Origin: Kiritimatiellia bacterium
Lineage (GTDB): Bacteria > Verrucomicrobiota > Kiritimatiellia > RFP12 > UBA1067
Assembly: GCA_045600365.1 (NCBI GenBank)
Contig: JAZRXT010000156.1
Span: forward strand, 3,516-67,515
Direction: 5' to 3'
DNA: 64,000 nt
This document shows, piece after piece, positions 12,506-46,708 of this stretch; within the stretch, counting starts at the first letter, position 1, and each line of letters begins with the position of its first letter. The translations under genes and the position numbers were made by a program. The notes below the pieces were generated by a model. That model did not search any database. It saw only the letters and a list, made by a program, of their open reading frames with translations, and was not told the origin of the DNA.

Positions 12506-15500
12506 CTACTTCAGGCTCCTGATTTCGTCCTCGGCGAAGACGGCACGTTTGTTCTGATGGTAGTTGAATATGAGCCTGTCCTCCGCAGACCAGTCGGTGG
12601 CCTCGGCATAGGATCCGACGAACGGCACCGCAAGATCGATCCAGCAGGCGAATAGCCGCTTCTCCTCCTCCTTCAGCAACACGCCGTGATGGGATGGTTC
12701 GAGGTAGTTCATGATCAAGCTCTTCGCCGATCCCTGCGCATACGGCGGCAGCATGGCGGAGCGCCCCGCATTCGAATACCAGGAGAGCATCTTCCTCTGC
12801 CTCCCGTTCTGCGTGAGCGAAAGATACGACTGCGAAAAACGCCGCCGCGATCCGCGCTTGAACTCCGGCACGGGCTTGCCGGTGAAGTCTGGACGCGCCT
12901 TGGCCTTCTCGGAACCATCATGGCACTTCACGCAGTGCGCGTCCAGAATGGGCTGGATGCGCTGCACGAAGCTGAAGCCCTCGACGACGGCGTCAGGATC
13001 GTCCGACCGCGGCGCATTCACGCCGAGGTAGTTGGACACAGAGCCGAGGATGCCATCCTTGTCGAGTCGCGCCAGCAGCGGATGCGGATTCTGTCCCGGC
13101 GCCGGACGCAGACGCTGCACGCTCACGGGACGACGTGTGTAGCCGCCGGGGAACACCTGCGTCTTGTCCTCATGGCATCCCACACAGGACGCCTCCTCGC
13201 CCGGCCGCACCGTGACCCAGCTGCGCATCGTCTGCACGGTGCGTCCGCGCGCATCGAGCGCCTGGAAATAGACCCCGTTGTTCGCCGGACATTCGAAGTA
13301 GCAGCTGCCGTCCTCATTCACATCCACCTCACCCAGCACGTGCTTGACGTCCCACGTGCCGATCGCGCTGATTACCTCGCCGCGGCCATCGTCGCCCGGA
13401 TGCGAGACGAGACTGTTGATTGCCGGATCGCAGTCCTTCGGCCACGGGCTATCGTCCTCCTTGTGCAGGAATGCTGGACGCGACTCGATGGCGACCACCC
13501 GCAGCTTCTTCACCGTGCCGCGCGGTATCCCCTTCAATCCCTCGCCGACATGGATGTCGGCGACATAGAAGCGTCCGTATGCCTCATTCCACTTGATCGA
13601 GGATACGCGCGGCACCGCCGTTCTGCGCGGCGCAACCGCCACCGGCTGGCACGCCCCCAGCATGGGGTCGTAAGCAAGCAGTTCGCGCTCGCCTTCCGCG
13701 TTCTGCCAGTAGATGCCGAACTGCGGGTCCGCCGCCCATTTGTCGATGAGCGAACCTTCAGGGAGGAAGGCGGTCACCCATTCCGTCTCGCCGAGCGGCC
13801 ACGGATGCGCCCATTGCGCACCGATCTGCCCGAATGCGTCGACGTGCTTCTCGGTAAGAAGTTCGGGAACGGCGTAGTGCGAGGCGACGCAGCCGGGCTT
13901 TTCCTCCATCGACGAGCCGGACACGAATTCAAGGGCGCTGTCGCCATTGAGTCCCTTGCGACGATCGATCGTGATAAGTTTGCCCTTCTGGTTCACGTGG
14001 TGCCCGGACGCAATGGCGATGACCTTCGGCGAACCGGGTATCTGCCGCGCGTGGAAGATCGCGCTCGGGAAGAACGAGTCCGCACCGTAGTAGGCCTCCT
14101 GCTTCGTGCCGTCCCAGTTCATCGTGAAGAGCGTCTGCTGGAAACGCGCATTGCGGTCGTTGTATTCCCAGCGCGTGTAGATGATGCGCCCGTCGTCGAG
14201 TTCCTGCGGATAGAGGCTGGACGCGCCGTCGAAGCTCACCCGCCGCAGATGGCTACCATCGGGATCGCAGACGTAGAGGTTCACGTAGAGTTCCTGATGG
14301 CACGGCACCACGGATTCGCAGCGTGTCGACTCGAACACGATCTTGTTCGCGCCCGTCCAGACCGGCTCGGTATCGGCGCAGGGCAGGATCTCTCCCGGCA
14401 GTTTCACACCCTTGACCTCGCGCGAAATCCGCGCGGGCGGCGAGAACGTGATCTGGCGGAGTTCGCGCGTGTCGAGGTTCATCGTCCACAGGTGGAAGTC
14501 GTCGCCCTCGCGCGCGAGGTACGAATCCCACGGCAATGCGTCGGGATAGTCGGTCATGAACCGGTGCGGCACGTAGTACTGGTTGAGATTGTAGCTGTCG
14601 CGCATCGAGAAGACGGGCATGCGCCCATCGGGCGACAGCGCGGGATCGCGGATGCAGCCCTCGGGCCGCGCCAGCAGCACCTCGTTGGATACGGTGCCAT
14701 CCGGATGGATCGTGAGCAGACAGAGCTCGCCGCCCTTCGTCCAGTTCTTCGGGCGCGAGTCGATGAGATCGTCGGTCTGATAGACCGTGCTCGAATGCGG
14801 CGAGTCGCTGCCGAAGACAAAGTGCTTCACGTAGACGAACCGCGGCGTCTTCGCGGCCAGACTGGCAAGGCGCACCTTCCGCCGTTCTGCGCATAGCTTG
14901 AAGTAGGCAGCCCGGAGGGCGGGATCATCAGGCCGGAGGTTTTTCAGCTCGGGAGGGAGCGTGCGGCCCACCGACTTCGCCACCTTCTCCAGCACGGCCA
15001 GCGCCCGGGTGTTGTCTGCGCCCGGCGCGAACACCGAAACGAAGTTGTCGATCCCCGCGTCCTGCATGAGCCAGTCCTTTTCGAGACGGCTGGAAGGATA
15101 GGCGAGACCATTCGCAGTCTTCACGGGGAAATCGGCGGGGCGTGCATCGAAGAGGGATATCTCGGCGATATCAACCGCATCAAGGTATTTATCGTCGCCG
15201 CCGTATGGATGGCCCCAGATGTCGCAATGCGTCTTCTGCAGCCACCGACCAAAGATTGAACGTTCGTTGATGGCAGTGGCGCCGGTCTTGTGGATGTCGA
15301 GGCGAAGATAGCGCGCCTTCGTCTTCGGCCATTCCACAAAGGCGGAGTCACCGCAAAAAACTACGGGCAGCGAAACGCACTTCGGCGTGAGAGGGCGTGG
15401 ATGCGCGCCGTCTATCGAGTCCACGGCACAGACGGTCACTTCTGCGGGCAGTCTTCCCAGCCAGCGAGATGGCTGCGCGACCAGGCGCATGCCGGTCGTT

Positions 15501-15760
15501 TCGCGTTCGGCACCCAAATCGAACGTGAGGTTGAGCCGCTTCTCGCGTACGGACAATGTCGCGAACGTCGTGGGATTGCCGTCGTGCAGCGCCGCCATGC
15601 CATGCCCGTCCACCTCCGTGCCCCACGGCTTCACGGTCAACGGCATGAACTCGCCTCCGGCGCACGTAGCCGCAGCCAGCGCAAAGATCATGAACAGATC
15701 GAGACTCGTCGTTCGCACGATTCGATCAGACAATTTGTGGAGCAATGCTTTGTTTGCCAT
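12506..15760 (-). CDS. Secreted TolB/PD40-like beta-propeller protein with C-terminal planctomycete-type cytochrome c domains (two CXXCH)
   Basis: ATG at 15760 (MANKALL...LDLFMIFALAAATCAGG signal). An alternative TTG start is at 15805. Propeller repeats are visible (LSPDGRMPVFSMRD, GSHLRRVSFDGASSLYP, DGTKQEAYYGADSFFPS). The CXXCH motifs are ASCVGCHEDK and AHCVKCHDGS, followed by a PSCyt-like tail KRLFACWIDLAVPF. Confidence 0.55.
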   Translation of the reverse strand: MANKALLHKLSDRIVRTTSLDLFMIFALAAATCAGGEFMPLTVKPWGTEVDGHGMAALHDGNPTTFATLSVREKRLNLTFDLGAERETTGMRLVAQPSRWLGRLPAEVTVCAVDSIDGAHPRPLTPKCVSLPVVFCGDSAFVEWPKTKARYLRLDIHKTGATAINERSIFGRWLQKTHCDIWGHPYGGDDKYLDAVDIAEISLFDARPADFPVKTANGLAYPSSRLEKDWLMQDAGIDNFVSVFAPGADNTRALAVLEKVAKSVGRTLPPELKNLRPDDPALRAAYFKLCAERRKVRLASLAAKTPRFVYVKHFVFGSDSPHSSTVYQTDDLIDSRPKNWTKGGELCLLTIHPDGTVSNEVLLARPEGCIRDPALSPDGRMPVFSMRDSYNLNQYYVPHRFMTDYPDALPWDSYLAREGDDFHLWTMNLDTRELRQITFSPPARISREVKGVKLPGEILPCADTEPVWTGANKIVFESTRCESVVPCHQELYVNLYVCDPDGSHLRRVSFDGASSLYPQELDDGRIIYTRWEYNDRNARFQQTLFTMNWDGTKQEAYYGADSFFPSAIFHARQIPGSPKVIAIASGHHVNQKGKLITIDRRKGLNGDSALEFVSGSSMEEKPGCVASHYAVPELLTEKHVDAFGQIGAQWAHPWPLGETEWVTAFLPEGSLIDKWAADPQFGIYWQNAEGERELLAYDPMLGACQPVAVAPRRTAVPRVSSIKWNEAYGRFYVADIHVGEGLKGIPRGTVKKLRVVAIESRPAFLHKEDDSPWPKDCDPAINSLVSHPGDDGRGEVISAIGTWDVKHVLGEVDVNEDGSCYFECPANNGVYFQALDARGRTVQTMRSWVTVRPGEEASCVGCHEDKTQVFPGGYTRRPVSVQRLRPAPGQNPHPLLARLDKDGILGSVSNYLGVNAPRSDDPDAVVEGFSFVQRIQPILDAHCVKCHDGSEKAKARPDFTGKPVPEFKRGSRRRFSQSYLSLTQNGRQRKMLSWYSNAGRSAMLPPYAQGSAKSLIMNYLEPSHHGVLLKEEEKRLFACWIDLAVPFVGSYAEATDWSAEDRLIFNYHQNKRAVFAEDEIRSLK

Positions 15761-15819
15761 GATTGATCTTCCCCGTATGGTTGATTCCTCGTTCAGCCGC
15801 TTCAAAACTCTCTCCAGAT

Positions 15820-15848
15820 AGTATAACTGATTCGTCCCCGCCTGTCAA
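15820..15848 (-). promoter_or_regulatory. Consensus sigma70 promoter TTGACA-17-TATACT upstream of the 12506..15760 gene
   Basis: The minus strand reads tggtaTTGACAggcggggacgaatcagtTATACTatctgg. The plus-strand positions are tgtcaa at 15843-48 and agtata at 15820-25. Confidence 0.5.
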
Positions 15849-15862
15849 TACCAAATAACGAA

Positions 15863-18800
15863 TTACGATATTTCCGCGGGAGGCAGAAAGAACTCGTGGA
15901 AATGGTGCCACTGGGAAGGATGCCGAAGCGTCTCCTCTTCAAGGAACGAAACATATTCCTCCAGCATTCTGCGTCTCGCGGCATGGACGGCTGACCGACT
16001 GGCGACGGCTACGGTGGAGGCATCTGTAACGAACTGGCGGAAATGCACCTCCCACAATTCACGCCCCACTTTGACGCAGGTGAAGAAATACACCGGCGCC
16101 CCAACCAGATCGGCAAACGCGAAGACCCCAAGCGGCCACCTCGCGTCACGGCCCATGAAAGAACAGACATCGCGGTTCGACCGCGCTCTCGCCGGAGTCG
16201 TCCGGTCGCCCGCCATCAACACTAGCTCGCCTCTTCGGACGGCGTCCTGCATGTCCACCGCAGTCTCAACGCCGATATCCTCGGTGGAATGGAGCACAAA
16301 GGCGTCGACGTTGAAATGGCGCTGCACCATTCGCGTGAATTCTGTATCGTGCCCGAGGTGCTGAAAGGCATGGACGCGCGCGCGTCTTGATCCCGCGCCC
16401 CGGTCGAGCGCCGATAGCATTTCCGCGCATCCGAGATGCGATGAGACCAAAAAGGCGCCCCTACCGGAGTCCAGCAGATCTCGCAACGACCGCCAAGCAC
16501 CGTCATCCCGCGCCGTCACCCGCGGCAACGACCGCCGCAGCGTACAGGCGTCCGTCTTGTCCACAAGAGTCCAGGCATACTCCAGTAGATGCCGAAACAA
16601 TCCGAACGTGCCAGCGCGTTTTCCACCATAGGCGGAAAGCGTCGCGTAGAAACTGCGCAGGGCCAGCCGGGCAGGCCGCGCAAAAGGATAGACGAACAGC
16701 ATCACCAGTAGAGTCAATGCCTTAACGGCACGTTTCCCCAGATGAGAATACACCCACCACATCAGCGCCAGCCGGAATCGACTGGCGCTCTGCTCGCGCT
16801 GAGCGTACCATGCCGTCTCCGCCGTAGCCGGCGATGTTCTGGAACCATCCGAGGAAAACGCCCTCGCGAACAGATACGAGAACGCCAGCGCCAGCGCGAA
16901 GACCACGCCCATGGAGCGCGTGACCGGAAAGGAGGTCAGTGCCAATGCGCCAAGCCCGACAAAGCTGGTGAGGAAGGAGGCCGTGACCGCGCGCAAGGTT
17001 GAGCGCGACGGGCTGCCGGCCCAGAAAATCGCATAATCCACGCCCAACCCCACCACGATGAAGAAGCAGAGCGGATGAAAGAAGGTCATCTTCACCCCGC
17101 ACCATCCCAGCAGACCCGCCGTGGCGGAGATCGCGCACGCAACCGGGAGGATGTACTTCGGGAAACGGCGGCGGAACAGCCCCACGAGCACAATCGCCAT
17201 CACCAGAACCGACGCCCCCAGCAGACGATACGTCTCATTCGCATGCCGATCGAAAAACGCCGTCAACTCCACCTGTGGATTGAAACGCCTGACACCTGGG
17301 GACGAGCGCTCATCCATCCGGCTTCCAGGGGTCTCCATACCCATCAGGAAGGTTCTTCCGCCCCTTTGAGCCAGCATTGGCGACAGCAGTCTAGACATGA
17401 ACTGGTTCTCCATCGCCTCCTGTGGCGAGAGGAGGCGTTCCCGCGATGGCATCGGCACCTTCAAGCCCGTCTTGGCGGAGTAGTCGCCACCGCGCTGCCT
17501 GCAGAACTCGGCCACCATGAGCGCGTTCTCGCGCTGTCGCTTCAGTGAGGGCACAATAGACGACACCCCCCGCAGGCCAGCGGCCTCCTCGCGTTCCAGC
17601 GCCTCCTGGATGTCGCCGCCCTCAGTGACGGCATATTCGCCTGTGGACATCCCCAGTGAAGCAAGCAACCGTTCACCGGCCAGCAGCGTCGACGGCGGCC
17701 TGTAGAACGAGGCGGGGCCATTGTCGGTCCTGAGAAAGACGACTCCGCCGGCGCAGAAAAGCACCAGAGCGGCGGCGATCCAACGCTGCCAGGGACGGGC
17801 GCGCTGCACCGGCACCCCGTCGGCTGCGGCCTTCGGTCTGCGTCCCCAAGCGCACACCATCAGGAAGCAGAAGACGCCCACCAGCCCCACGGTGGTGAAA
17901 AGCGCCATCTGCCGCAGCACCAGGACGGAGGAGAAGAAAAGCGGAACGAAGCCGGAGAGCGTGGTCGCGAGCGCATGGAGAATCTTGCGACGCACCTGCG
18001 CCTGCTCGTCCCCGGCAGCCAGAATATGATACACGTAGTCAACGCCAAGCCCGATCAGCGAAGTACCGAAGACGAACGTGAGCACATGCGGACGTGACGG
18101 GCAGGCGAAAAGAGCGGCCGTACCGGCAAGCGAGCCGCAGGCCAGCGCGGCAAGCAACAGGGGGACAAACGCGAAGGAACCGAGAAGCACGCGGCCAATC
18201 GACAGCACGGCAAGGATCGAGGCCCACGACAGCACGGCGATCTCGCGCATGGACCGCGTTCGCGCAAGGGCAGAATGGAAAGGCGCACCACAGGGATATG
18301 CCCGTACCGGTCCATTCTCCGCATTGAAGATGCGAACGCGCTCAAGGACGTCCAGCATTCGCTTCACCCCTGCGGAATCAACCTTGCATGTCCCCTCCAG
18401 TAGCACGAAATGATGGCCGTCGCGCTCCATTGTCGGCAACCCATTGCGCATTGACCAGGGCGGCACGGCGCCTTCGGCGAGGTCCATGAACCATATGGTG
18501 CCGAGCATGAACGGATCGCCGCGCAGCGGGAAAACCGGGGGAACGACACCGGAAAAGAGCAGCGACAGCGACTCCTTCTCGACCTCGGCGTAGTTCCGCT
18601 GCAGCAGGTTGGTGCGGGTAGATTCGGCGAGCAGTCCATCGCGCCGTGAGGCGAGGAAATCGACCGCCGCCGCGATTCCATTGTCCGCCGCCGCATCCGG
18701 CTGGACCAGCGGGCGCAGACGCACCGCCGCCGCGTCCACGGCGGTGGCGGAATCGCCTTCCAGCAGCAGTCGCATTCGCGATGACTGGACGGAGGACAGC

Positions 18801-18946
18801 GCGGCGAGCGCATCGGCGCCGTCGGTATCCATAAGCGCGTTGACGTCGGTCTCGACCCCGCGTCCGCAGCGCAATGCCATCACGCACGCGGCGCCTGCCA
18901 TTGCGGTGACCAGCGCCGCCAGGCGCGCCTTGCGAGGGAACGTCAT
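15863..18946 (-). CDS. Fusion protein: MMPL/RND-like predicted exporter (COG4258-type) + C-terminal lysophospholipid/lipid-A-type acyltransferase (LPLAT, LpxL/HtrB-like)
   Basis: This is a continuous 1027-aa ORF. The N-terminal ~780 aa carry 12 TM helices and large periplasmic loops, like APE-cluster exporters. The C-terminal ~250 aa carry SSHLGCAEM (the H-x4-D/E acyltransferase motif) and an LpxL-like core. The ATG at 18946 has SD GGAGAAGGA and overlaps the LolA-like stop (ATGA). Confidence 0.65.
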   Translation of the reverse strand: MTFPRKARLAALVTAMAGAACVMALRCGRGVETDVNALMDTDGADALAALSSVQSSRMRLLLEGDSATAVDAAAVRLRPLVQPDAAADNGIAAAVDFLASRRDGLLAESTRTNLLQRNYAEVEKESLSLLFSGVVPPVFPLRGDPFMLGTIWFMDLAEGAVPPWSMRNGLPTMERDGHHFVLLEGTCKVDSAGVKRMLDVLERVRIFNAENGPVRAYPCGAPFHSALARTRSMREIAVLSWASILAVLSIGRVLLGSFAFVPLLLAALACGSLAGTAALFACPSRPHVLTFVFGTSLIGLGVDYVYHILAAGDEQAQVRRKILHALATTLSGFVPLFFSSVLVLRQMALFTTVGLVGVFCFLMVCAWGRRPKAAADGVPVQRARPWQRWIAAALVLFCAGGVVFLRTDNGPASFYRPPSTLLAGERLLASLGMSTGEYAVTEGGDIQEALEREEAAGLRGVSSIVPSLKRQRENALMVAEFCRQRGGDYSAKTGLKVPMPSRERLLSPQEAMENQFMSRLLSPMLAQRGGRTFLMGMETPGSRMDERSSPGVRRFNPQVELTAFFDRHANETYRLLGASVLVMAIVLVGLFRRRFPKYILPVACAISATAGLLGWCGVKMTFFHPLCFFIVVGLGVDYAIFWAGSPSRSTLRAVTASFLTSFVGLGALALTSFPVTRSMGVVFALALAFSYLFARAFSSDGSRTSPATAETAWYAQREQSASRFRLALMWWVYSHLGKRAVKALTLLVMLFVYPFARPARLALRSFYATLSAYGGKRAGTFGLFRHLLEYAWTLVDKTDACTLRRSLPRVTARDDGAWRSLRDLLDSGRGAFLVSSHLGCAEMLSALDRGAGSRRARVHAFQHLGHDTEFTRMVQRHFNVDAFVLHSTEDIGVETAVDMQDAVRRGELVLMAGDRTTPARARSNRDVCSFMGRDARWPLGVFAFADLVGAPVYFFTCVKVGRELWEVHFRQFVTDASTVAVASRSAVHAARRRMLEEYVSFLEEETLRHPSQWHHFHEFFLPPAEIS

Positions 18947-19395
18947 CTATCCTTCTCCGCCACGTCGCGACGAACAAGCTCCACATCAAGCCGGTCCCCA
19001 TTGCGGAACTTGACCACAACCTGGCGGGGGAAGGCATCACTGGGAATGCATTCGACATCCTTCACCAGTTCGCGAACCTCCTTAATGGCGAATATCCCCG
19101 CGATTGACGAGACATCGTTGGCAAGCGGCTGGGAGCGAACGCGCCCGTTGGCGCTAAACGTCCAGTTGGTGGGAGTGGCGATGAAGCTGCTGGGCACCGG
19201 TTCCACGGTGTTCCATTCGAAGCTGCGATCGCGCTCGAAGCGGAACGTTCCCTTCGACGTCAGCGTAACCCCAACGTCGGCCAGAACGCGACGCTGCACG
19301 AAATCGCCATGCGCCGACTTGGGCATGGAGGGCGTCGCCGCCATCAGGGCCGACCCACCAAGTGCGGTCAGAAGGAGAAAGTGCCTGACGAGCAT
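18943..19395 (-). CDS. LolA-like outer-membrane lipoprotein carrier family protein (secreted)
   Basis: Signal peptide MLVRHFLLLTALGGSALMAATPS. It is ~150 aa with a beta-rich LolA-like pattern. It sits in the position of the LolA-like gene of aryl-polyene clusters. Confidence 0.5.
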   Translation of the reverse strand: MLVRHFLLLTALGGSALMAATPSMPKSAHGDFVQRRVLADVGVTLTSKGTFRFERDRSFEWNTVEPVPSSFIATPTNWTFSANGRVRSQPLANDVSSIAGIFAIKEVRELVKDVECIPSDAFPRQVVVKFRNGDRLDVELVRRDVAEKDR

Positions 19396-19709
19396 ATCGT
19401 ATCTCCCTTGCAGAACGTGTACGAAACGGAATTCCCGGCGTCGGACGCGAGCTTCAGCGTCACCTGCTCGTCAGGGACGATCGGGCGCATGAACTTCATC
19501 TTCCGCACCATCTGGGGCACAAGGCGGCGACCAAGCAGCCGTTCGGCAAAATGGTGGGCAACGCCCAGCTGGACCACGCCCGGGAGCAGCGGACAACCAT
19601 CGAAATGCCCCTTGAAGAATTCGGCCGATGGGGGAAAAGACACCACCACCTCCATCCCACTCTCGGTGCGAACCGGATTCGACGCGGAGAACTCCTCAAT
19701 CCTCACCAT
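19368..19709 (-). CDS. FabA/FabZ-like hot-dog fold dehydratase (or thioesterase)
   Basis: FKGHFDGCPLLPGVVQLGVAHHF matches the FabZ active-site signature FxGHFPxxPvmPGVL. The protein is 113 aa. Confidence 0.65.
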   Translation of the reverse strand: MVRIEEFSASNPVRTESGMEVVVSFPPSAEFFKGHFDGCPLLPGVVQLGVAHHFAERLLGRRLVPQMVRKMKFMRPIVPDEQVTLKLASDAGNSVSYTFCKGDTICSSGTFSF

Positions 19710-21090
19710 CGAACATCCTCCTCAGTTCATCCGCCAGAACCTTGCCCTGCGCGTTGCGCGGAATCTCGTCGACGAAGCGGAAGCGCCTGGGCACGGTGCC
19801 ACGGGGAAATATCGGGAGCAGCAGGCTGCGCATCTCCAGAGGCGTTCGCCGTTCACCAGCCACCACCGCGCCAAGCATGGTGCCAAGCGGAGCGTCAAGA
19901 GTCACCAGCGCGGCCATGCGCACGCCAGGAAGTCCCCGCATCTTCGCCTCCATCTCGGGAAGGGACACCCTCTCGCCGTTGATCTTCGCCATGCGGTCGA
20001 GACGGTCGAGCAAACGGAACGAACGCGCGTCCGGTGAAAGCTCAACCCCGTCGCCCATGGTGTACACGCGTCGGTACGAAAATGGCGAGCGTACCACCAG
20101 GCGACCATCCTCGGCAGTGGAGACGCGCACTTGGTCGAATACGCGCCATTCGCATTTCTGGGGCGAGGCGCCATCCTGTCTGCGCCAGGCGACCCCGCCC
20201 GTCTCGGTGCTGCCGAAGATCTCCAGCGGCGCAATGCCGAACATGCGCCTGGCGGCGGCGCTGGTCTCTGCATCGAGCAGCGAGCCGCTGGTGACCACCT
20301 CCACCGCATTGCGGGGGATTTCATACTGGCCGGCGTAGCGCGCGAGGCGGGCGAGAAAGGGAGGCGTGGTCACAAGCACCACGTGCTCGGCGCGGCGCAT
20401 GGCGCCGATCAGCTCCTCCGGCGAGGCGATGACGGCAGGATGGACCGCGCACCCGGAGACAGACGGCAGCAGCTTCCGCCACAGGACGCCGTATAGGTGG
20501 CCGGGATCTATCGTGGCGAGGAAGAGCGGTCTGTCGCGCAGAACATCTGCCAGGCGCCGATGGTGCATTGCCGTTTCAAGCGCAAGCGTACGAAAGGTCT
20601 TGACAATCCGTTTCGGCTTCGCCGTCGAACCCGAAGTGTGGAACACGGACGAAAACCTTCGCCGACGCACCAGCCATTCGATGCCGACGATCACGCCCGT
20701 GGCACAGTAGGAGAGAATGCAGTTCCACAGCACCCAGGCGGCGGGGATCTCAACTGTGCCGCCGCCGATGCGCCAGACCGGGCCGGGCATGAAGATAGTG
20801 CCCACTGCGATCAGCGCGTTGATGCAGAGCCACACGGTCCAGAACAGCGTATACCGCCGACAGTACGGTTCGGCGCCCGGCGGAAGAATGTGGGGTGGAA
20901 TCACGCGCGCCAGCGCGAGGCAGAATGGTTCAGGGCCCAGCAGACTCGAACCGAAGACCGTCGCCATGCCGAGGCTCATCGTCACCGGGTACCACGCCAG
21001 TGCCGTGAACTTGCGGGTGAGAACCACGACCAGGATGCAGACCGCAAGAATCGCAAAGGCCGTACCGCGACATTTGAAGGGATTCTTCAC
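19696..21090 (-). CDS. Fusion: N-terminal 4-TM membrane domain + AMP-dependent ligase (acyl/aryl-ACP synthetase-type adenylation domain)
   Basis: The N-terminal ~150 aa are hydrophobic (AFAILAVCILVVVL, LFWTVWLCINALIAVGTIF). The adenylation motifs VFHTSGSTAKPKRIV (A3), GSTETG (A5) and NAQGKV (A10) follow. A GTG start is assumed at 21090, since the first in-frame ATG is 37 codons in. Confidence 0.6.
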   Translation of the reverse strand: MKNPFKCRGTAFAILAVCILVVVLTRKFTALAWYPVTMSLGMATVFGSSLLGPEPFCLALARVIPPHILPPGAEPYCRRYTLFWTVWLCINALIAVGTIFMPGPVWRIGGGTVEIPAAWVLWNCILSYCATGVIVGIEWLVRRRRFSSVFHTSGSTAKPKRIVKTFRTLALETAMHHRRLADVLRDRPLFLATIDPGHLYGVLWRKLLPSVSGCAVHPAVIASPEELIGAMRRAEHVVLVTTPPFLARLARYAGQYEIPRNAVEVVTSGSLLDAETSAAARRMFGIAPLEIFGSTETGGVAWRRQDGASPQKCEWRVFDQVRVSTAEDGRLVVRSPFSYRRVYTMGDGVELSPDARSFRLLDRLDRMAKINGERVSLPEMEAKMRGLPGVRMAALVTLDAPLGTMLGAVVAGERRTPLEMRSLLLPIFPRGTVPRRFRFVDEIPRNAQGKVLADELRRMFDGED

Positions 21091-21116
21091 GGCAGATGTC
21101 GGGGTATGGCCGCGGC

Positions 21117-21365
21117 CTAGTCGGCAAGCAGCTTCTTCACGGCCGCTGTGACATCGGCAAGCGTACGGATCTGACGGAATTCCTCGGGATTGACCTTGCG
21201 TCCAGTCTCCTGCTGGAGGCGAACGACCAGATCGACGGCGTCGATCGAATCAAGATCAAGATCGGAGAACAGATTCACCTCGGGGACGAGACGGGCAGGA
21301 TCGCATTCGAAATCCTTGACGAGGATTTCCTTGATCTTGGCCTCGATTTCAGCTTCGGAGATCAT
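21117..21365 (-). CDS. Acyl carrier protein (dedicated, second of a tandem pair)
   Basis: It is 82 aa with the phosphopantetheine-site motif DLDLDSIDAVDLV. The ATG directly follows the TGA of the upstream ACP. Confidence 0.8.
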   Translation of the reverse strand: MISEAEIEAKIKEILVKDFECDPARLVPEVNLFSDLDLDSIDAVDLVVRLQQETGRKVNPEEFRQIRTLADVTAAVKKLLAD

Positions 21366-21638
21366 TCAGCCGACCTCTCCCTTCTGCGCCGCTATGAAGT
21401 CGGCAATAGTCGACACACTGCGGAAAACGGCCTTGTTCTCGGCGGGGTCCTGCGAGAATACGACATCGAAGCGCTTCTTCACGGCCATGCCGAGTTCAAG
21501 CGCGTCGATGGAGTCAAGGCCGAGCCCCTCACCGAAAAGCGGAGCGTCGGCCTCGATGTCTTCGGGGGAGACGCCCTCCAGATCGAGGGCGTTCACCACG
21601 ACGGATTTAAGCTCCGCGACTATCTCGTCGCGAGTCAT
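21366..21638 (-). CDS. Acyl carrier protein (dedicated, first of a tandem pair)
   Basis: It is 90 aa with LGLDSIDALELGMAV. The ATG at 21638 overlaps the secDF stop (ATGA). Confidence 0.8.
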   Translation of the reverse strand: MTRDEIVAELKSVVVNALDLEGVSPEDIEADAPLFGEGLGLDSIDALELGMAVKKRFDVVFSQDPAENKAVFRSVSTIADFIAAQKGEVG

Positions 21639-24199
21639 TTACCCTCGGCGGAATCCGTGAACTGGGGACGACGGCCCTTGTAGTACCACATCATCACCGG
21701 GGTGGCGACGAACATGGAGGAGAAGGTGCCGGCGATGACGCCGATGAGCATCGTGAGCGCGAAGTCGAAGATCGAGCCGTCGCCGAAGGCGAAGAGCGCG
21801 AGCACCGCGAAGAACGTCGTGATGGACGTGATCACCGTACGGGAGAGGCACTCGTTGAGCGCGCGGTTGCAGAGCTCCTTGAAGCCAGTCTTCTGGTCGC
21901 GGCGCAGATCCTCGCGGATGCGGCCGAAAACGACGATCGTGTCGTTAACCGAGTAGCCGACGATCGTCAGCAGCGCCGTCACGACGAGCAACGAGACCTG
22001 ACGCCCGCAGAGCGAGAAGAGGCCGAGCGAGATCAGCACGTCATGCGCAAGGGCGACGAGCGCGCCGAGGCCAAAGCCGAACTCGAAGCGGAAGCCGACG
22101 TAGATCAGAATCGCGCAGAGCGAGAGGACGACCGCCCAGGTACCGGAGGTCTTGAGGTCCTTGCCGACCATCGAACCCACCTCGTCGACCGAGATCTGCT
22201 TGACCTGTGCGTCCTTGAAGTTGTCCTGCAGCAGCTTCGTCACGTGCGCACCGACATCCGTCACGCCCTTGTCCTTGGCGTTTTCGGCCGTGTAGCCGGT
22301 CTTGACGAGCAGCGTGGAGTCGCCCACGCCCTCCTGATACTGGATGATCGTCGCGTTGTCGAACGGGTCGAGCACCTTGCGCACGTCGCCGACCGCAGGC
22401 TTGGCCTTCTGGTCGACGGAGAAGACGAGCGAGGTGCCGCCGGTCAGGTCGACGGCCAGAACCGAGGCCGGCTTGACCACGGCGCGGATGCCGAAGATGG
22501 CGACCGTTATGACGCAGACCGTGAAGGCGGAGATGGCAACGACCTTGCCAAGCTTGACGAAGTCAACATTCGGGGCCTTCTTGAAGATGTTGAGCATCTT
22601 GAAGGGCTTGGAAAGTTCCGCCTTCGTGGTGTTGTCGAACACGAGGCGGGTGACGACCACGGCCGTGAACATCGAGATGATGACGCCGGCGGTGAGGGTG
22701 ATCGCAAAGCCGCGCACGGGGCCGGTGCCCACGATGAAGAGGATGATGCCGGTGACGATCGTCGTGATGTTGGAGTCGAGAATCGCGGTGAAGGCGCGGC
22801 CGTAGCCGTTCTTCAGCGCGGTGCCGACCGTGGCCTTGGCGGCGAACTCCTCGCGGATGCGCTCGAAGATGATCACGTTCGCGTCCACGGCCATGCCGAG
22901 GGTGAGCACGAGACCGGCAATGCCGGGCATCGTCAGCACCGGCAGCTGCAGCGAGCCGGTGGCGCCCATCGAAGCGTCCTTCGCGAAGACGCCCAGCACG
23001 TTGGCGACGAACACCAGCGCGGCCGGAAGGAGCGCAACGTCGAGGAAGAGCGCGATGTCGGCCACGAGACCGGCATACCAGTAGTAGATGAACATGAAGA
23101 GCGCGACCAGCGAGAAGCCGAGAGCCGCGGCAACGAGGCCGGCGTGCTTCGCATCCTCACCCACAGTGGGCGAAACGGAGGATTCGGCAAGGAGCTTGAG
23201 CGGCGCAGGAAGAGCGCCGGCGTTGAGCTCGTTGGCGAGCTGCTGGGCCTCGGCCGCGGTGAAGTGACCGGTGATCTGGCCATGCGCACCGATCTCGCTC
23301 TGGATGACCGGGGCGGAAACGAGCGTGTCGTCGAGGATGATCGCCAGCTGACGACCACGGTCGGAGGGGTTCTTCGGGCCATGCGCCACATAGTTGCGCG
23401 TGACGTCGGAGAAGAGCTTGGCACCCTTCGCATTGAAGGAGAAGCTGATGGCGAGCGAACCGGCGGCATCGCGCTCGACGCCGGCCGAAGTGAGGTACTC
23501 GCCGGTGATCGGCTGCGGCTCGCCCTTTGCGTTGCGCGTAGGGGCGCTGCGGCTCACGAAAGCACCGCGATAGGAGCCGTCGCTTCCCTTCTCGAGCATG
23601 AACTGGTAGCGGGGATCGGGCGTGTGGAAGGAGGCGAGACGGGCGGCATAGCCCTTCTGGCTGGCGATCTTTTCGTAATCCGCCTTACGGACAAAGCCGG
23701 CGCCGCCGCGCTCGTATCCTTCGGGGCAGGCCTCGGTGGACATCAGCTTGTTGACGAGCTCGTCATTGCGCGGATGGGTGAGACGGAACTCAAGGAAGGC
23801 AGCAGACTGCAGCGACTTCTTGGCGGCGGCGCGGGTGGCCTCGTCGATGCCGGGAAGCTGCACCAGCAGGCGGTGGTCCTTCATTCCCTGGATCACCGGC
23901 TCGTTCATGCCCATACCATCGACACGGCGACGGACAACCTGGATGATGCGCGAGTCGCAACCCTGCAGCGTATCGGCAATCTTCTTGTCGATCTCCGCCA
24001 CGTCATTGGAGATGGCAGGATTGGCGGCGATGATCGTCTCGCGCAGCTTATCCTGATCCACGTCAAGCGTGAAGGACGTTCCACCCTTCAAGTCAAGGCC
24101 GAAACGAAGCTTCTGCGCCACCGGGAAAGTGACGTATATAGAAAACACGGCGATGATCAGCAAAGCCAACCACTTCCAGACATCATTGCGAGTATTCAT
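21635..24199 (-). CDS. secDF: Protein translocase subunit SecDF (fused SecD-SecF)
   Basis: It is 854 aa. The SecD periplasmic domain, the TM bundle (GLDLKGGTSFTLDV...) and a SecF-like second half are present. SD AGAGGTAAAG. Confidence 0.9.
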   Translation of the reverse strand: MNTRNDVWKWLALLIIAVFSIYVTFPVAQKLRFGLDLKGGTSFTLDVDQDKLRETIIAANPAISNDVAEIDKKIADTLQGCDSRIIQVVRRRVDGMGMNEPVIQGMKDHRLLVQLPGIDEATRAAAKKSLQSAAFLEFRLTHPRNDELVNKLMSTEACPEGYERGGAGFVRKADYEKIASQKGYAARLASFHTPDPRYQFMLEKGSDGSYRGAFVSRSAPTRNAKGEPQPITGEYLTSAGVERDAAGSLAISFSFNAKGAKLFSDVTRNYVAHGPKNPSDRGRQLAIILDDTLVSAPVIQSEIGAHGQITGHFTAAEAQQLANELNAGALPAPLKLLAESSVSPTVGEDAKHAGLVAAALGFSLVALFMFIYYWYAGLVADIALFLDVALLPAALVFVANVLGVFAKDASMGATGSLQLPVLTMPGIAGLVLTLGMAVDANVIIFERIREEFAAKATVGTALKNGYGRAFTAILDSNITTIVTGIILFIVGTGPVRGFAITLTAGVIISMFTAVVVTRLVFDNTTKAELSKPFKMLNIFKKAPNVDFVKLGKVVAISAFTVCVITVAIFGIRAVVKPASVLAVDLTGGTSLVFSVDQKAKPAVGDVRKVLDPFDNATIIQYQEGVGDSTLLVKTGYTAENAKDKGVTDVGAHVTKLLQDNFKDAQVKQISVDEVGSMVGKDLKTSGTWAVVLSLCAILIYVGFRFEFGFGLGALVALAHDVLISLGLFSLCGRQVSLLVVTALLTIVGYSVNDTIVVFGRIREDLRRDQKTGFKELCNRALNECLSRTVITSITTFFAVLALFAFGDGSIFDFALTMLIGVIAGTFSSMFVATPVMMWYYKGRRPQFTDSAEGK

Positions 24200-24231: not shown

Positions 24232-24260
24232 ATTATACCAAAAAAAGTGGTCGATGGCAA
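24232..24260 (-). promoter_or_regulatory. Sigma70 promoter TTGCCA-17-TGGTATAAT for the secDF operon
   Basis: The minus strand reads cTTGCCAtcgaccactttttttgGTATAATc, ~32 nt upstream of the ATG at 24199. Confidence 0.5.
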
Positions 24261-43481: not shown

Positions 43482-45725
43482 CTACCGCCACTGGAGACCA
43501 TTAAATGGCTTGGCGGGACCACCATCCTCATCCGAAACCGGATAGGGCCCGCGACCGATATCGGCGGGAGTGTAGTTCAGCGGCCAACCCTCCGCGGGTT
43601 TCTCGGCAAAGGCATCGCGCACCGCCTCGAACATGCCGAAGCCGAATTCACCATTCGGCTCGGCGTAAGATCCCTCGCCCCATTCGTGAAGCGGAGCCAG
43701 GCACACGCGCTTCGTGCCAGTCTCCTCCACGAACCTCTTTGCATCGCGGCAGATGCGCCGGAACTGTCCCACAGTGCGGCCGCGCACCTCGCAGCCGTCA
43801 TGCCACGGGCGATCGTCCCAACAGGTGGAGAGGTTGGGCAGAAAGTCGATACCACCCACCCCGTGCACGCTCTTCCAGTAGGGGTAGCTCGATTCCGCAA
43901 CGTCGGCGAAATCCCTGACCCCAGGCTCCTTGTCCTGCTTGCCGCCGGTGCCGATGTAGTGGTAGGTGGTGGTCTCGTCAAAGCCGAAGTCGGCCATGCG
44001 CTGCACCTCGGCAGGAGAGTAGCCGCACTGCGCCTGGAAGTAGATGCCCTTGTAACCCTTCGCGCGCGCCATGGCCCGGGCCTTCTCCAGCATCCGCCGG
44101 CAGCCGCCCTTACCGCAGTCGCGCTCGATGCCGTTGCCGTCCCACACGCTGAAGTACGGCATGCCGTTCACATACATGTACTGCGGCTGCTTGAAGAGAC
44201 TGTCGAGGCAGAGGTTGATCATATTGGTCCAGTGTGCCTCGTCACAGCCAGGCGCGGGAATATGGTTACACCACATCGCCGCCCACTTGATGTATTTCGC
44301 GAAGCGCGCCTTCTTGAGCGCCTGCTGGAAGTAGCCCTCGTGACAGTACCAATCGAGAAGATAGAACGAAATGCCGTTCTCGACCGCCCACTTGATCTGC
44401 CAGTCCAGCAGCTCGGGGTTCTCGTTCGAATACCAGCCGACCGCCGGACGGCGCTCGGGCGTCGTGCGCCAGATCTTGAGCCAATGATGGGTCTTCGCCC
44501 AATCGAGGAAGTAGAACGCACCCACCTCGCAGCCGGGCGTCTTCACTGGCTTCGGTTCTGGAATGTAGTCGACGGCGCGGGGCAGGTTCAGGGACGGACC
44601 GATCTTCACCGGCACCTCGGCAACCGCGCTCGGCGCGTTGCCGCCCGTGAACTCGAAGCGCAGCTTGAACTCGCACGGACGCGATGCCACCAGCTTGGCG
44701 CAGTGCAGCACGGAGTCGCCGCCGCCTAGACGGCAGAGCGCGCCCGCCTTCTCGGGGTTCACGATCCTCACGCCATCGGGAAGGCCGCTGATTCTGCACT
44801 TCACGCCCTCGGCCGCCAGCGTGCCCACGTTGAACACGCCCACCTCGACGTTCACCTCGCGCCCCTCGCGGTCAAGCTCGAGCGGGATCTTCGTGTGCGA
44901 GAGAATCAGCTCGGGCGGAATGCCGGGGTTGTCCGTGACGATCTTCAGATCCTTCAGCGGCAACACCTCGCCGGTTTTGCGGTTGACGACGCGGAACAGG
45001 TGAACGAGGCCATTCCATTTATCGCGCATGTTGGGATAGGGATAGTTGGCGTTCCAGCCCACGCAGCTCTTCGCGTCGAAGAAGTAGCGGCGTTCGCGCC
45101 CGTCGCCAATGAGATGCATGTGTTCGTTGACGCGGGTGTATGTACCGTCGCCGGCGATCCACTCGATATCGGCCCACGCGGTGCGGTACTGCGGCGGCAC
45201 GGTGAACACCGCACCACCCGTTCCCTTGACGGCAGTGCCCACAGGCGTGAGCGAAACATCCATGCGCTCGATAGCGATGCGGGTGAAGGCGGTCTTGACC
45301 GCGCGGTCGGCCGGCATGTCGATGCGGATGGACACCACCTTGGGCTGCCCGCCCCAGAACGGACGAATCCTGTACTCGTGCCACTTGCCGTCGCCGATCC
45401 ACTTGAACGACTGCGCGAGCGACTGCGGGGCGGCGCGATCGCCGGGGCGGCTGTAGAAGAGTTCGCCCTTGCCACCCACCGTGGTACGCGCGCGAAACAC
45501 CACCTCGTGGAGATTCGACGGCTTCTCCAGGTCGAAGGCCGGGCTGGTGATGAACGGGTCGAGTCCAGCGGAAGCGTAGAACACGCCATCGGGCATATTG
45601 GTGGGCGTGCACTGGTGGCTCCACCAGCCGCGGTGCAGCGCCTCGCCCTTCCACTCGTATGTGTCGGCCGCGCCGGCGCACAATGCGGTGCAGACGGCCA
45701 GAATAGGTAGTATCAACTTGCTCAT
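43482..45725 (-). CDS. Secreted TIM-barrel glycoside-hydrolase-like protein (GHL/family-10-like)
   Basis: ATG at 45725 with SD TGGAGGTAC, and signal MSKLILPILAVCTALCAGAA. A C-terminal (beta/alpha)8-like region reads YLLDWYCHEGY...YFSVWDGNG...GIYFQAQ. The family is not assigned. Confidence 0.5.
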   Translation of the reverse strand: MSKLILPILAVCTALCAGAADTYEWKGEALHRGWWSHQCTPTNMPDGVFYASAGLDPFITSPAFDLEKPSNLHEVVFRARTTVGGKGELFYSRPGDRAAPQSLAQSFKWIGDGKWHEYRIRPFWGGQPKVVSIRIDMPADRAVKTAFTRIAIERMDVSLTPVGTAVKGTGGAVFTVPPQYRTAWADIEWIAGDGTYTRVNEHMHLIGDGRERRYFFDAKSCVGWNANYPYPNMRDKWNGLVHLFRVVNRKTGEVLPLKDLKIVTDNPGIPPELILSHTKIPLELDREGREVNVEVGVFNVGTLAAEGVKCRISGLPDGVRIVNPEKAGALCRLGGGDSVLHCAKLVASRPCEFKLRFEFTGGNAPSAVAEVPVKIGPSLNLPRAVDYIPEPKPVKTPGCEVGAFYFLDWAKTHHWLKIWRTTPERRPAVGWYSNENPELLDWQIKWAVENGISFYLLDWYCHEGYFQQALKKARFAKYIKWAAMWCNHIPAPGCDEAHWTNMINLCLDSLFKQPQYMYVNGMPYFSVWDGNGIERDCGKGGCRRMLEKARAMARAKGYKGIYFQAQCGYSPAEVQRMADFGFDETTTYHYIGTGGKQDKEPGVRDFADVAESSYPYWKSVHGVGGIDFLPNLSTCWDDRPWHDGCEVRGRTVGQFRRICRDAKRFVEETGTKRVCLAPLHEWGEGSYAEPNGEFGFGMFEAVRDAFAEKPAEGWPLNYTPADIGRGPYPVSDEDGGPAKPFNGLQWR

Positions 45726-45763
45726 GGGAGCGTACCTCCAGATTTCAGGTTGGGTGGGGAGCG

Positions 45764-46708
45764 TCAACGAACCTTAAGACCGTCGACTTCGATTTCAAAA
45801 AGCCATTCGTCGCGACAGACGTCGCAGACCGTCTCGGCGCCAAGACCAACCGAGAGACCATGCCGGGCGAGCCACGCACGCCAGGAGGGGAGAAACTCGG
45901 GCTTCTTCAGGTAGACGATAGCGCGAGGCACGTCCTTCCAGTCGTAGCCGCGGCTGGCCAGAATCGCGTGGACTGCATTCATAGTACAGTCTATCTGGCG
46001 ATCGATGTCGCCCACATACGCCACCTCATGCGAATTCGGCCTGATGGAGGCGGTACCGCTGATGAAGAGACGTCGCCAGGTGGGTGCGACTATTTCCGCC
46101 GCCCGGCTGAAACTAGACTTGTACGCCATTGCAGGTGCCTGCAGCGGCGACTCGACGAGTTCGGCGCGAATGCCGCCGTGCTTCGGCTTCATGGCGATTG
46201 CACCGGCCGCGATCGCCGCACCGTCGAGATTGGCGGACCCGATTCCGGTGGAGGCAGGGAGAAAGGTCTCAAACACGCGACGGCTCTCAAAGAAGGCGCT
46301 GCGGGCGGCATTGAATTCGGCATACCATTCGCATACCCGATCGATGAAGAGCCAGGTACGGATGACATTGGAGAAATCCATCTTCGCCTCGGACAGTATC
46401 GACTCGAGCTCGGGGAACACTGCCGCCGCCTGGACGCCGCGAGGCGCGGAGCGGTCGGGCGGCAGCACGCCGGCGGCCATCAGGTACACGGCGTCGTTAT
46501 CCTCCCAGACGCTCGCCACCGCACGCCCACCGCGCACTATCTGGCGCGTTCCCGCTACGGGAACGAAATCAAACGGAACGACTACAGGCGACAGACCGCC
46601 GCCATCGCACACAAGACGGAACGACGGCGTGGAAGCTGCGGCTCTCGCCTTCACTTCTGATCCAGTTCCCCAGAGGAACCTGGCGGACGATGTTGCTTCT
46701 GGTGACAT
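45764..46708 (-). CDS. Tandem YjgF/RidA-fold protein of the FkbO/Hyg5 chorismatase-like ('pteridine-dependent deoxygenase-like') family
   Basis: There are two RidA-like halves. The N-terminal half reads NVIRTWLFIDRVCEWYAEFNAARSAFFESRR. The C-terminal half reads RLFISGTASIRPNSHEVAYVGDIDRQ...AIVYLKKPEFLPSWRAW...DEWLFEIEVDG. The overall length is ~314 aa. Confidence 0.4.
   Translation of the reverse strand: MSPEATSSARFLWGTGSEVKARAAASTPSFRLVCDGGGLSPVVVPFDFVPVAGTRQIVRGGRAVASVWEDNDAVYLMAAGVLPPDRSAPRGVQAAAVFPELESILSEAKMDFSNVIRTWLFIDRVCEWYAEFNAARSAFFESRRVFETFLPASTGIGSANLDGAAIAAGAIAMKPKHGGIRAELVESPLQAPAMAYKSSFSRAAEIVAPTWRRLFISGTASIRPNSHEVAYVGDIDRQIDCTMNAVHAILASRGYDWKDVPRAIVYLKKPEFLPSWRAWLARHGLSVGLGAETVCDVCRDEWLFEIEVDGLKVR

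Follow-up and report, generated by a model that had tools for sequence, protein, structure and literature searches.

The gene set described here lies in a 64,000-nucleotide stretch of contig JAZRXT010000156.1 from a Kiritimatiellia bacterium (the window hereafter). It probably belongs to an outer-membrane lipid pathway of the aryl-polyene (APE) type, as a module for loading, attachment, and export that was remodelled in a Kiritimatiellae lineage of the gut and rumen. According to the open reading frame (ORF) listing, seven minus-strand ORFs, from secDF through a gene for a 1027-residue exporter-acyltransferase, span positions 15863-24199, and this listing and a reading of the junctions bore out an earlier sequence-based note, which had described seven co-directional, overlapping genes. 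Judged by sequence comparison, the six genes other than secDF are collinear orthologues of ApeE, ApeF, ApeG, ApeH, ApeI, ApeL, and ApeM, together with the C-terminal half of ApeJ, and the apeE-F-G-H-I-(J,K)-L-M order is preserved. Comparison with related genomes places the locus as a conserved, lineage-wide APE variant with two distinctive fusions and a dispersed layout.

The proteins of the Escherichia coli CFT073 APE cluster served as the reference for BLASTP comparisons, and domain calls were also taken from Pfam and NCBIfam. The first acyl carrier protein (ACP1) was 52% identical to ApeE (E 5e-29), scored 86.6 with NF006617 (cut-off 70), and contained the loop insertions and the Gly-rich motif specific to ApeE as defined in PMC12624758, the latter reading FGEGLGLDS and including the phosphopantetheine serine. 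The second carrier, ACP2, was 49% identical to ApeF (E 3e-27) and reached 107 bits with NF003757 (cut-off 65). With both proteins above these cut-offs and the AcpP model TIGR00517 below its own, the refuting case raised in the earlier note, that the carriers are general fatty acid synthase (FAS) AcpP paralogues, was ruled out, and by their sequences they are dedicated ApeE and ApeF orthologues. The hot-dog protein encoded further downstream was 39% identical to ApeI (E 4e-17), belonged to family PF22818, and matched the PDB structures 3esi and 6qsr. The gene set listed previously was thus upheld, but the name FabZ was not, as the dehydratase is an ApeI-type half-dehydratase. Finally, the LolA-like protein combined a hydrophobic, signal-like N-terminal segment with 26% identity to ApeL (E 3e-4) and 24.8 bits with PF03548 (cut-off 23.6), and its gene is kept directly upstream of the exporter gene in most related loci.

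The first of the two fusions joins a membrane domain to a ligase in a protein of 464 residues, of which residues 24-144 aligned with ApeG 79-186 (33% identity, E 5e-12) and residues 152-460 with ApeH 139-448 (32% identity, E 3e-36). Four membrane helices were located at residues 4-25, 34-49, 73-100, and 117-145, and the P-loop TSGSTAKPK starts a few residues past the last of them. The N-terminal ~138 residues of ApeH are absent, and the AMP-binding Pfam match begins at profile position 167. The protein therefore lacks the full two-subdomain N-terminal domain (~400 residues) of ANL-superfamily adenylating enzymes, with ~350 columns aligning to structures of ~500 residues. The motif residues of A3, A5, A7, A8, and A10 were invariant in 32 ligase homologues, and the AlphaFold model of the protein reached a mean predicted local distance difference test score (pLDDT) of 87.1 and a predicted template modelling score (pTM) of 0.75. 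More than 100 homologues join the same membrane domain to a truncated ligase, most of them 560-590 residues long with ApeI fused on as well. An exhaustive search of representative sequences with the ligase found the membrane fusion in very few 50%-identity clusters, and canonical ApeH relatives aligned only from about their residue 130 on. As judged from these homologues, the fusion is conserved and is no frameshift or assembly artefact. The earlier note was right to call it a fusion of a membrane protein with a ligase, although the ligase part is not a full-length ApeH. Six other ApeH-like ligases of 437-442 residues (P0261, P0278, P0279, P0281, P0285, and P0287) start right at the P-loop without any membrane domain, so that truncation of the ApeH N-terminus seems to occur outside the membrane-fused family too; these proteins carry ~120 extra C-terminal residues that could be a fused ApeI.

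The second fusion, in the 1027-residue protein, combines a lipid exporter with an acyltransferase. Residues 84-705 aligned with ApeM (24% identity, E 6e-21) and residues 714-1023 with ApeJ 250-552 (26% identity, E 5e-19). The acyltransferase HX4E motif (H837 to E842) reads HLGCAE, compared with HLGDVE in ApeJ. The exporter part showed the expected fold of the resistance-nodulation-division (RND) superfamily, with 12 transmembrane helices, two periplasmic domains, and Asp-Tyr proton-relay pairs in the fourth and tenth helices. These pairs (D303-Y304 and D637-Y638) and H837 were invariant in 24 sequences, and E842 was at least 90% conserved. In the AlphaFold model (pLDDT 80.9), an RND body is followed by an alpha/beta domain, and the best solved folds for the body were HpnN (E 3e-14) and MmpL3, MmpL4, and MmpL5, including MmpL5-AcpM complexes. 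The protein itself had no Pfam match at an E value of 0.01 or better, and it was annotated from its motifs, its structural model with the fold matches, and the BLASTP alignments to ApeM and ApeJ. PF03176 and PF03279 are found on its homologues in precomputed annotations, matches of the acyltransferase domain to lysophospholipid acyltransferase (LPLAT) models in the NCBIfam and Pfam scan were weak, and a PDB sequence search with that domain returned no match. About 80 proteins of 900-1140 residues, including named proteins from Kiritimatiellae metagenome-assembled genomes (MAGs), cover at least 95% of the query at 34-45% identity, with one at 83%. Sequence conservation of this extent indicates that the exporter-acyltransferase fusion is real and conserved, and no frameshift or assembly artefact. 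The fusion proposed in the earlier note is therefore genuine, but its acyltransferase corresponds to the C-terminal domain of ApeJ and not to ApeD or Aas. One Kiritimatiellia MAG (JAZRWB01) holds two paralogous exporter-acyltransferase genes (loci L038 and L044).

The features of the operon and of the other genes discussed are listed in Table 1. The secDF and ACP1 genes overlap by 4 nt in an ATGA that was read directly in the sequence, the ACP1 and ACP2 genes abut without a gap (TGAATG), and 26 nt separate the ACP2 gene from the ligase gene. The remaining junctions are overlaps of 14 nt (ligase and ApeI), 28 nt (ApeI and LolA-like), and 4 nt (LolA-like and exporter). A scan for consensus promoters over 9 kb returned six sites against 1.8 expected in shuffled sequences. 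Among them was the one that the earlier note had placed in front of secDF, and no other strong promoter-like site precedes the seven genes. Given its 4-nt overlap with the ACP1 gene, secDF is probably co-transcribed with the genes that follow. A second promoter-like site sits between the end of the operon and the next gene, which fits an operon ending there. Terminator-like sites within the operon were not commoner than in shuffled sequence.

Table 1. Operon genes, domains, promoter-like sites, and other genes of the window discussed in the text
Feature	Position	Strand	Size and basis
secDF	21635..24199	-	854 aa; TIGR01129 and TIGR00966 above cut-off
ACP1, ApeE-type starter carrier protein	21366..21638	-	90 aa; BLASTP, NF006617
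ACP2, ApeF-type (malonyl-carrier type) ACP	21117..21365	-	82 aa; BLASTP, NF003757
Membrane domain-ligase protein, ApeG/ApeH-type	19696..21090	-	464 aa
N-terminal four-helix membrane domain of the 464-aa protein, ApeG (COG4648) homologue	20650..21090	-	BLASTP
ApeH-type adenylating ligase core, aa 148-464 of the 464-aa protein	19696..20649	-	BLASTP, Pfam
ApeI-type hot-dog half-dehydratase	19368..19709	-	113 aa; PF22818
ApeL/LolA-like periplasmic lipid carrier	18943..19395	-	150 aa; PF03548
Exporter-acyltransferase fusion, whole gene	15863..18946	-	1027 aa
ApeM-type RND/MMPL lipid exporter domain, aa 1-705	16832..18946	-	BLASTP, motifs, fold
C-terminal ApeJ-type (LpxL/LPLAT superfamily) acyltransferase domain, aa 706-1027	15863..16831	-	BLASTP, HX4E
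Sigma-70-like promoter TTGCCA-17-(TG)TATAAT, in front of secDF	24232..24260	-	11/12 match
Second promoter-like site TTGACA-17-TATACT	15848..15820	-	between operon end and next gene
Next gene, HZS_alpha/cytochrome-c-type protein	12506..15805	-	1099 aa
FkbO/Hyg5-family chorismatase-like protein, outside the operon	45764..46708	-	314 aa; tentative
WbsX/GH99-like glycosyltransferase gene	43482..45767	-	761 aa

To follow the gene set across genomes, one genome per species was scanned with an alignment of the 1027-residue family, giving 79 loci that were mapped by tblastn (numbered with the prefix L below). The reduced set was found exactly as in the window in 14 species-level Kiritimatiellae genomes, where ketosynthase (KS) and ketoreductase (KR) genes were absent over as much as 7.3 kb on the upstream side and 10 kb on the downstream side. 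In six further genomes, the set was present but its exporter did not carry the acyltransferase. At seven other loci, the acyltransferase is encoded by itself, and four of these loci belong to a MAG that is among the six. A short form comprising only the LolA-like gene and the exporter-acyltransferase gene was present in 21 genomes. Complete APE clusters, found in 16 Alphaproteobacteria of the gut (Ca. Enterousia and relatives) and in one Kiritimatiellia MAG (L064), contain the same ApeM-ApeJ fusion, which is thus not specific to the form without a KS. These clusters hold ApeC-D-E-F-G-H-I, a glycosyltransferase (GT), (K), (L), and M, with ApeR-Q-P-O as a divergent operon; a further locus from the Alphaproteobacteria (L057) is truncated where its contig ends. 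In the complete clusters (L047-L076 and L064), ApeJ is split between a separate gene for its GT half and the ApeM gene, which bears the acyltransferase half, an arrangement that ties the acyltransferase domain to ApeJ function. In a neighbor-joining tree of the exporter part, all Kiritimatiellae forms grouped in a single clade, with the complete clusters of Alphaproteobacteria as its sister group. Clustering of flanking genes across the loci revealed a probable membrane transporter (~315 residues) downstream in nine loci and no other conserved neighbor.

This distribution also bears on whether the operon could be a decaying APE remnant left without current function after loss of the polyketide synthase genes, a reading that many missing core genes and a ligase truncated relative to ApeH might suggest. 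We regard it as highly improbable, because the ORFs are intact, the catalytic motifs are invariant across homologues of 35-60% identity, the layout recurs across 14 plus 6 genomes at species level and hundreds of proteins from metagenomes, and the structural models are confident. The conservation of the motifs across homologues implies purifying selection.

The position of secDF, by comparison, is not shared. None of 20 related ACP-to-exporter loci had a secDF gene beside it, and the linkage was found only in a relative of the same genus (L087), whose proteins are 83-89% identical to those of the window and which also shares the downstream genes of the window. The linkage is thus genus-specific and most simply incidental. 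On this comparative evidence, secDF is a housekeeping protein-export RND gene and not a conserved part of the system. Accordingly, of the neighborhood conservation that the earlier note had proposed to check, both fusions held across the relatives and the secDF linkage did not, and the idea of stoichiometric co-expression with the secretion motor found no support. The next gene downstream of the operon encodes a protein with an HZS_alpha middle domain, beta-propeller-like repeats, and two CxxCH motifs, and its synteny with the operon was likewise seen only in L087.

Pfam scans of the long ORFs and tblastn searches with ApeA-R, Kiritimatiellae ApeC, ApeD, GT2, ApeO, and ApeR, and E. coli FabH, FabD, FabG, and FabF revealed no KS, KR, thioesterase (TE), or GT gene of the pathway in the 64-kb window, including the region directly beyond the operon, in agreement with the earlier note. 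Neither the ketosynthases ApeO and ApeR nor the chain length factor (CLF) ApeC nor a KR of the ApeQ/FabG type had a match. ApeP was absent, with ApeI present and retaining its catalytic His, and no ApeD, ApeJ GT domain, ApeK, ApeN, ApeB, or ApeA was found in the operon or the window. Since the KS, CLF, KR, and ApeP features are missing from the window, the operon does not count as a full member of the APE cluster family. The APE core set used in 10.1101/2020.12.19.423268 comprises the KS apeO/R, the ACP apeE/F, the CLF apeC, the dehydratase apeI/P, the KR apeQ, and the transporter apeM.

The earlier note had read this absence as a self-contained system in which an acid is loaded, transferred unmodified, and exported, without elongation or a polyene and in the manner of Aas/LplT. 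On paper, a ligase, an ACP, an acyltransferase, an exporter, and a periplasmic carrier would suffice for such a system, and KS and KR genes were missing from the window and, in 20 relatives, from the 5-10 kb around this operon. This scheme, however, leaves unexplained why a malonyl-type ACP2 and an ApeI with an invariant His are kept, as well as the ApeC-like CLF of the relatives, where further ape-like loci exist. In addition, the acyltransferase is of the ApeJ/LpxL type and the transporter belongs to the RND superfamily, unlike the PlsC-type domain of Aas and the major facilitator superfamily (MFS) transporter LplT. We therefore consider it quite unlikely that the operon acts alone; its sequence content does not support a self-contained system and instead points to one module of a dispersed pathway.

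The ApeI protein is informative in this respect. Alignments showed its catalytic His to be invariant in 40 sequences, whereas ApeP has the Glu and no His. The acid position in ApeI itself is occupied by Asp, by His or Tyr, or, in every reduced cluster, by Gly. The reduced-type proteins form a subfamily of their own, marked by this Gly and by a conserved LG.A.HFAE motif. Conservation of the His in a protein that lacks the acid implies that a partner is encoded at another place. Candidate companions were seen in the relatives. In three loci, an ApeC-like CLF and an ApeD-like acyltransferase lie ~4 kb from the exporter gene, and a search with the ApeC-like protein returned 738 relatives. These revealed a recurrent unit in gut Kiritimatiellae, made up of an ApeC-like CLF (PF13723, 169-197 residues), an ApeD-like protein (PF01553), and a GT2 that is the counterpart of the missing half of ApeJ. 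The unit was present in L083 (10001-12332), L084, L088-L091, and L172-L181, never with a KS beside it; in the MAG CAVERN01, the unit and the exporter gene are on different contigs. None of the ApeC-like, ApeD-like, and GT2 genes occurs in the 64-kb window. In L172-L181, genes for a FadL/Toluene_X-type outer-membrane protein and for a 1375-residue protein without domains come before the unit.

Such observations raise the alternative of an ordinary split APE cluster, in which ApeO/ApeC, ApeR, ApeQ, and ApeP are encoded elsewhere in the genome and a normal aryl-polyene lipid is made, so that nothing but the arrangement of the genes would be out of the ordinary. Obligate partner subunits such as the His-only ApeI are kept, ApeC-like CLF proteins are abundant in relatives, the ape-like genes there are spread across two loci or more, and a complete cluster is present in one Kiritimatiellia MAG (L064); the ApeO-P-Q-R block, being contiguous in complete clusters, could have moved as a unit. 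The 87 additional ApeC-like loci were combined with the earlier ones into 1.58 Mb (~60 exporter loci and ~90 ApeC-like loci, complete clusters excluded), and this sequence held no KS of the ApeO, ApeR, or FabF type. Its only FabG/ApeQ-type matches were two generic short-chain dehydrogenase/reductase (SDR) genes (L062 and L048). Together with the distinct subfamily of reduced-type ApeI and the shorter ApeC-like proteins (169-197 versus 240 residues), this makes a split canonical cluster unlikely in our judgment, although it merits more weight than a self-contained operon.

What could build the chain instead is suggested by a divergent FabH-like ketoacyl-ACP synthase (KAS) III, with its Cys/His/Asn motifs present, in three loci (L160, L130, and L068). 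In L160 (921-6638) and L130 (4810-8671), it follows, within one operon, ApeC-like, ApeD-like, DUF3261 (ApeN-like), and TMEM260-like genes in that order; L160 goes on to an FkbH-domain protein, and L130 is cut off by a contig end. In L068 (3130-5162), a 61%-identical KAS III is encoded directly upstream of a stand-alone ApeJ-type acyltransferase, and the MAG that holds this locus also has an ACP-to-exporter locus. The KAS III link is a lead from the loci of relatives and not a finding for the window. It is tentatively conceivable that the canonical core (ApeO, ApeR, ApeQ, and ApeP) has been lost and that the CLF, ApeI, and the ACPs work with housekeeping enzymes of the type II FAS (FAS II) or with this divergent KAS III, giving an unknown aryl-primed outer-membrane lipid by way of the membrane ligase and the exporter-acyltransferase.

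Comparison with known systems helps to delimit what is particular to this operon. The APE clusters of E. coli CFT073 and Xenorhabdus doucetiae share the orthologues and the apeE-F-G-H-I-...-L-M order with the window, but the window differs from them in that ApeG and ApeH are fused, with the first ~138 residues of ApeH deleted, and the C-terminal part of ApeJ is carried on ApeM. The complete clusters of gut Alphaproteobacteria and of EPI_MAG_00031 (L047-L076 and L064) have the same ApeM-ApeJ fusion with a separate gene for the ApeJ GT; in contrast to the window, they keep ApeR-Q-P-O, ApeC, ApeD, the GT, and often ApeK, and ApeG and a full-length ApeH are encoded by separate genes. In Acinetobacter baumannii, the APE cluster has an ApeH-ApeI fusion (PMC8041823), which is matched by the ApeG-ApeH-ApeI proteins of 560-590 residues in relatives of the window, and ApeI is likewise the His donor. 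Unlike in A. baumannii, ApeI of the window is a separate ORF and no ApeP is nearby. The mycobacterial lipid exporters MmpL3, MmpL4, and MmpL5, whose activity is coupled to FAAL/PKS and ACP and which include MmpL5-AcpM complexes, and the hopanoid exporter HpnN have the RND lipid-exporter fold and the Asp-Tyr pairs in common with the exporter of the window, as well as the idea that synthesis is coupled to export and that an ACP docks on the transporter; they are, however, only 12-16% identical to it, and the acyltransferase of the window is covalently fused in a diderm with a LolA-like carrier. As the earlier note had pointed out, the E. coli Aas/LplT system likewise unites a ligase that forms acyl-ACP with an acyltransferase and a transporter as a single functional unit. 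In Aas, though, a PlsC-type (HX4D, PF01553) domain is N-terminal to the ligase and AcpP is the carrier, and LplT is an MFS flippase. Aas models matched the window only generically (E 4e-9, 35-40 bits against cut-offs of 886-1221), and the proposed resemblance was not sustained. Our literature search turned up no description of this architecture, in line with the impression of the earlier note that it is undescribed.

The likely substrate was approached through the ligase. ApeH loads 4-hydroxybenzoate (4-HBA) onto ApeE (PMC8253772). With ACP1 and the ligase orthologous to ApeE and ApeH, and with the nearest folds of the ligase model mostly those of aryl-acid-activating ANL enzymes (benzoate-CoA ligase, CahJ, EntE, MenE, and McbA), an aryl starter is most likely its substrate. 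A chorismatase-like protein encoded ~25 kb from the operon may be a source of hydroxybenzoate, to judge from its match to the FkbO/Hyg5 family (TIGR04444, E 6.7e-16; PDB entry 5ag3 of Hyg5, E 7e-11). The stop of its gene overlaps the start of the WbsX-like gene by 4 nt. In the xanthomonadin pathway, the chorismatase XanB2 supplies 3- and 4-hydroxybenzoate. The window resembles that pathway in having a chorismatase-family gene, and differs from it in that this gene is 25 kb away, encodes a distant member of the family, and belongs to another operon. Genes of the shikimate pathway were also seen near some related loci. DAHP synthase, CM/PDT, and AroC genes are directly upstream of the ACP genes in L002 (2852-7234), L037, and L081, which form one closely related lineage (94-97% identity), and an AroC gene is ~5 kb downstream of the exporter in L001 (18546-19589), L019, and L036. 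As a substrate clue, this linkage was rejected for being too limited to particular lineages.

On these grounds, a scheme can be outlined for the loading, attachment, and export module. The membrane-anchored ApeG/ApeH-type ligase would adenylate a small carboxylic acid, likeliest a hydroxybenzoate, at the inner face of the cytoplasmic membrane and load it directly onto ACP1, as is expected from the orthologous ApeH and ApeE, which are active in vitro. ACP2 would carry malonyl extender units, in keeping with ApeF as the malonyl carrier of the APE system (PMC12624758), and ApeI would contribute the catalytic His of a heterodimeric dehydratase, since ApeI and ApeP form a heterodimeric dehydratase with a single active site (PMC8041823). 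As ACP2 would hold malonyl units and ApeI gives only the His, the starter would be extended and dehydrated by enzymes encoded outside the operon. ApeJ has been proposed to acylate a sugar with the ApeE-bound APE, and ApeM, ApeG, and ApeL to export the product (10.1101/2020.12.19.423268). By analogy, the ApeJ-type domain at the C-terminal, cytoplasmic end of the transporter would move the ACP1-bound chain to a hydroxyl of a (glyco)lipid, and the same polypeptide would extrude the product by proton-motive force and pass it to the ApeL/LolA-like carrier for delivery to the outer membrane.

Several points weigh against this scheme. Functions, including the putative substrate and product, were assigned solely by homology, at 24-52% identity, and co-transcription from the promoter of secDF is predicted from a consensus scan. 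The malonate ligase MatB is among the top fold matches of the ligase model, and with nearly half of the ANL N-terminal domain missing, activity or specificity could differ from those of ApeH. The chorismatase-like gene is outside the operon, its family score is far below the cut-off, and no homologue of it was found near the clusters of relatives. Lastly, the search for an ApeC/ApeD/GT2 locus or a dedicated KS in this organism covers the 64-kb window.

Scans of the whole window (positions 1-64000; GC content 56-65%) detected neither tRNA genes nor, at the gathering threshold, any Rfam family. Lipopolysaccharide and cell-wall genes for LpxI, a Wzy_C-type ligase-like protein, and NamZ are located near 25-31 kb, and type II secretion or pilus-type genes (secretin and PilM) at 55-62 kb.

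These results indicate that genes for loading, attachment, and export are separated from the polyketide core in this lineage. Rule-based detection that requires a KS, such as the core-gene set used with antiSMASH (10.1101/2020.12.19.423268), would probably miss the locus. The fused proteins are direct genetic hints that ApeG works with ApeH and the C-terminal domain of ApeJ with ApeM. If the polyketide core is truly absent, the locus would show how partner subunits such as a CLF and a half-dehydratase can be re-used with other condensing enzymes, and the abundant uncultured Kiritimatiellae of the gut and rumen would be expected to make a so far unknown envelope lipid.

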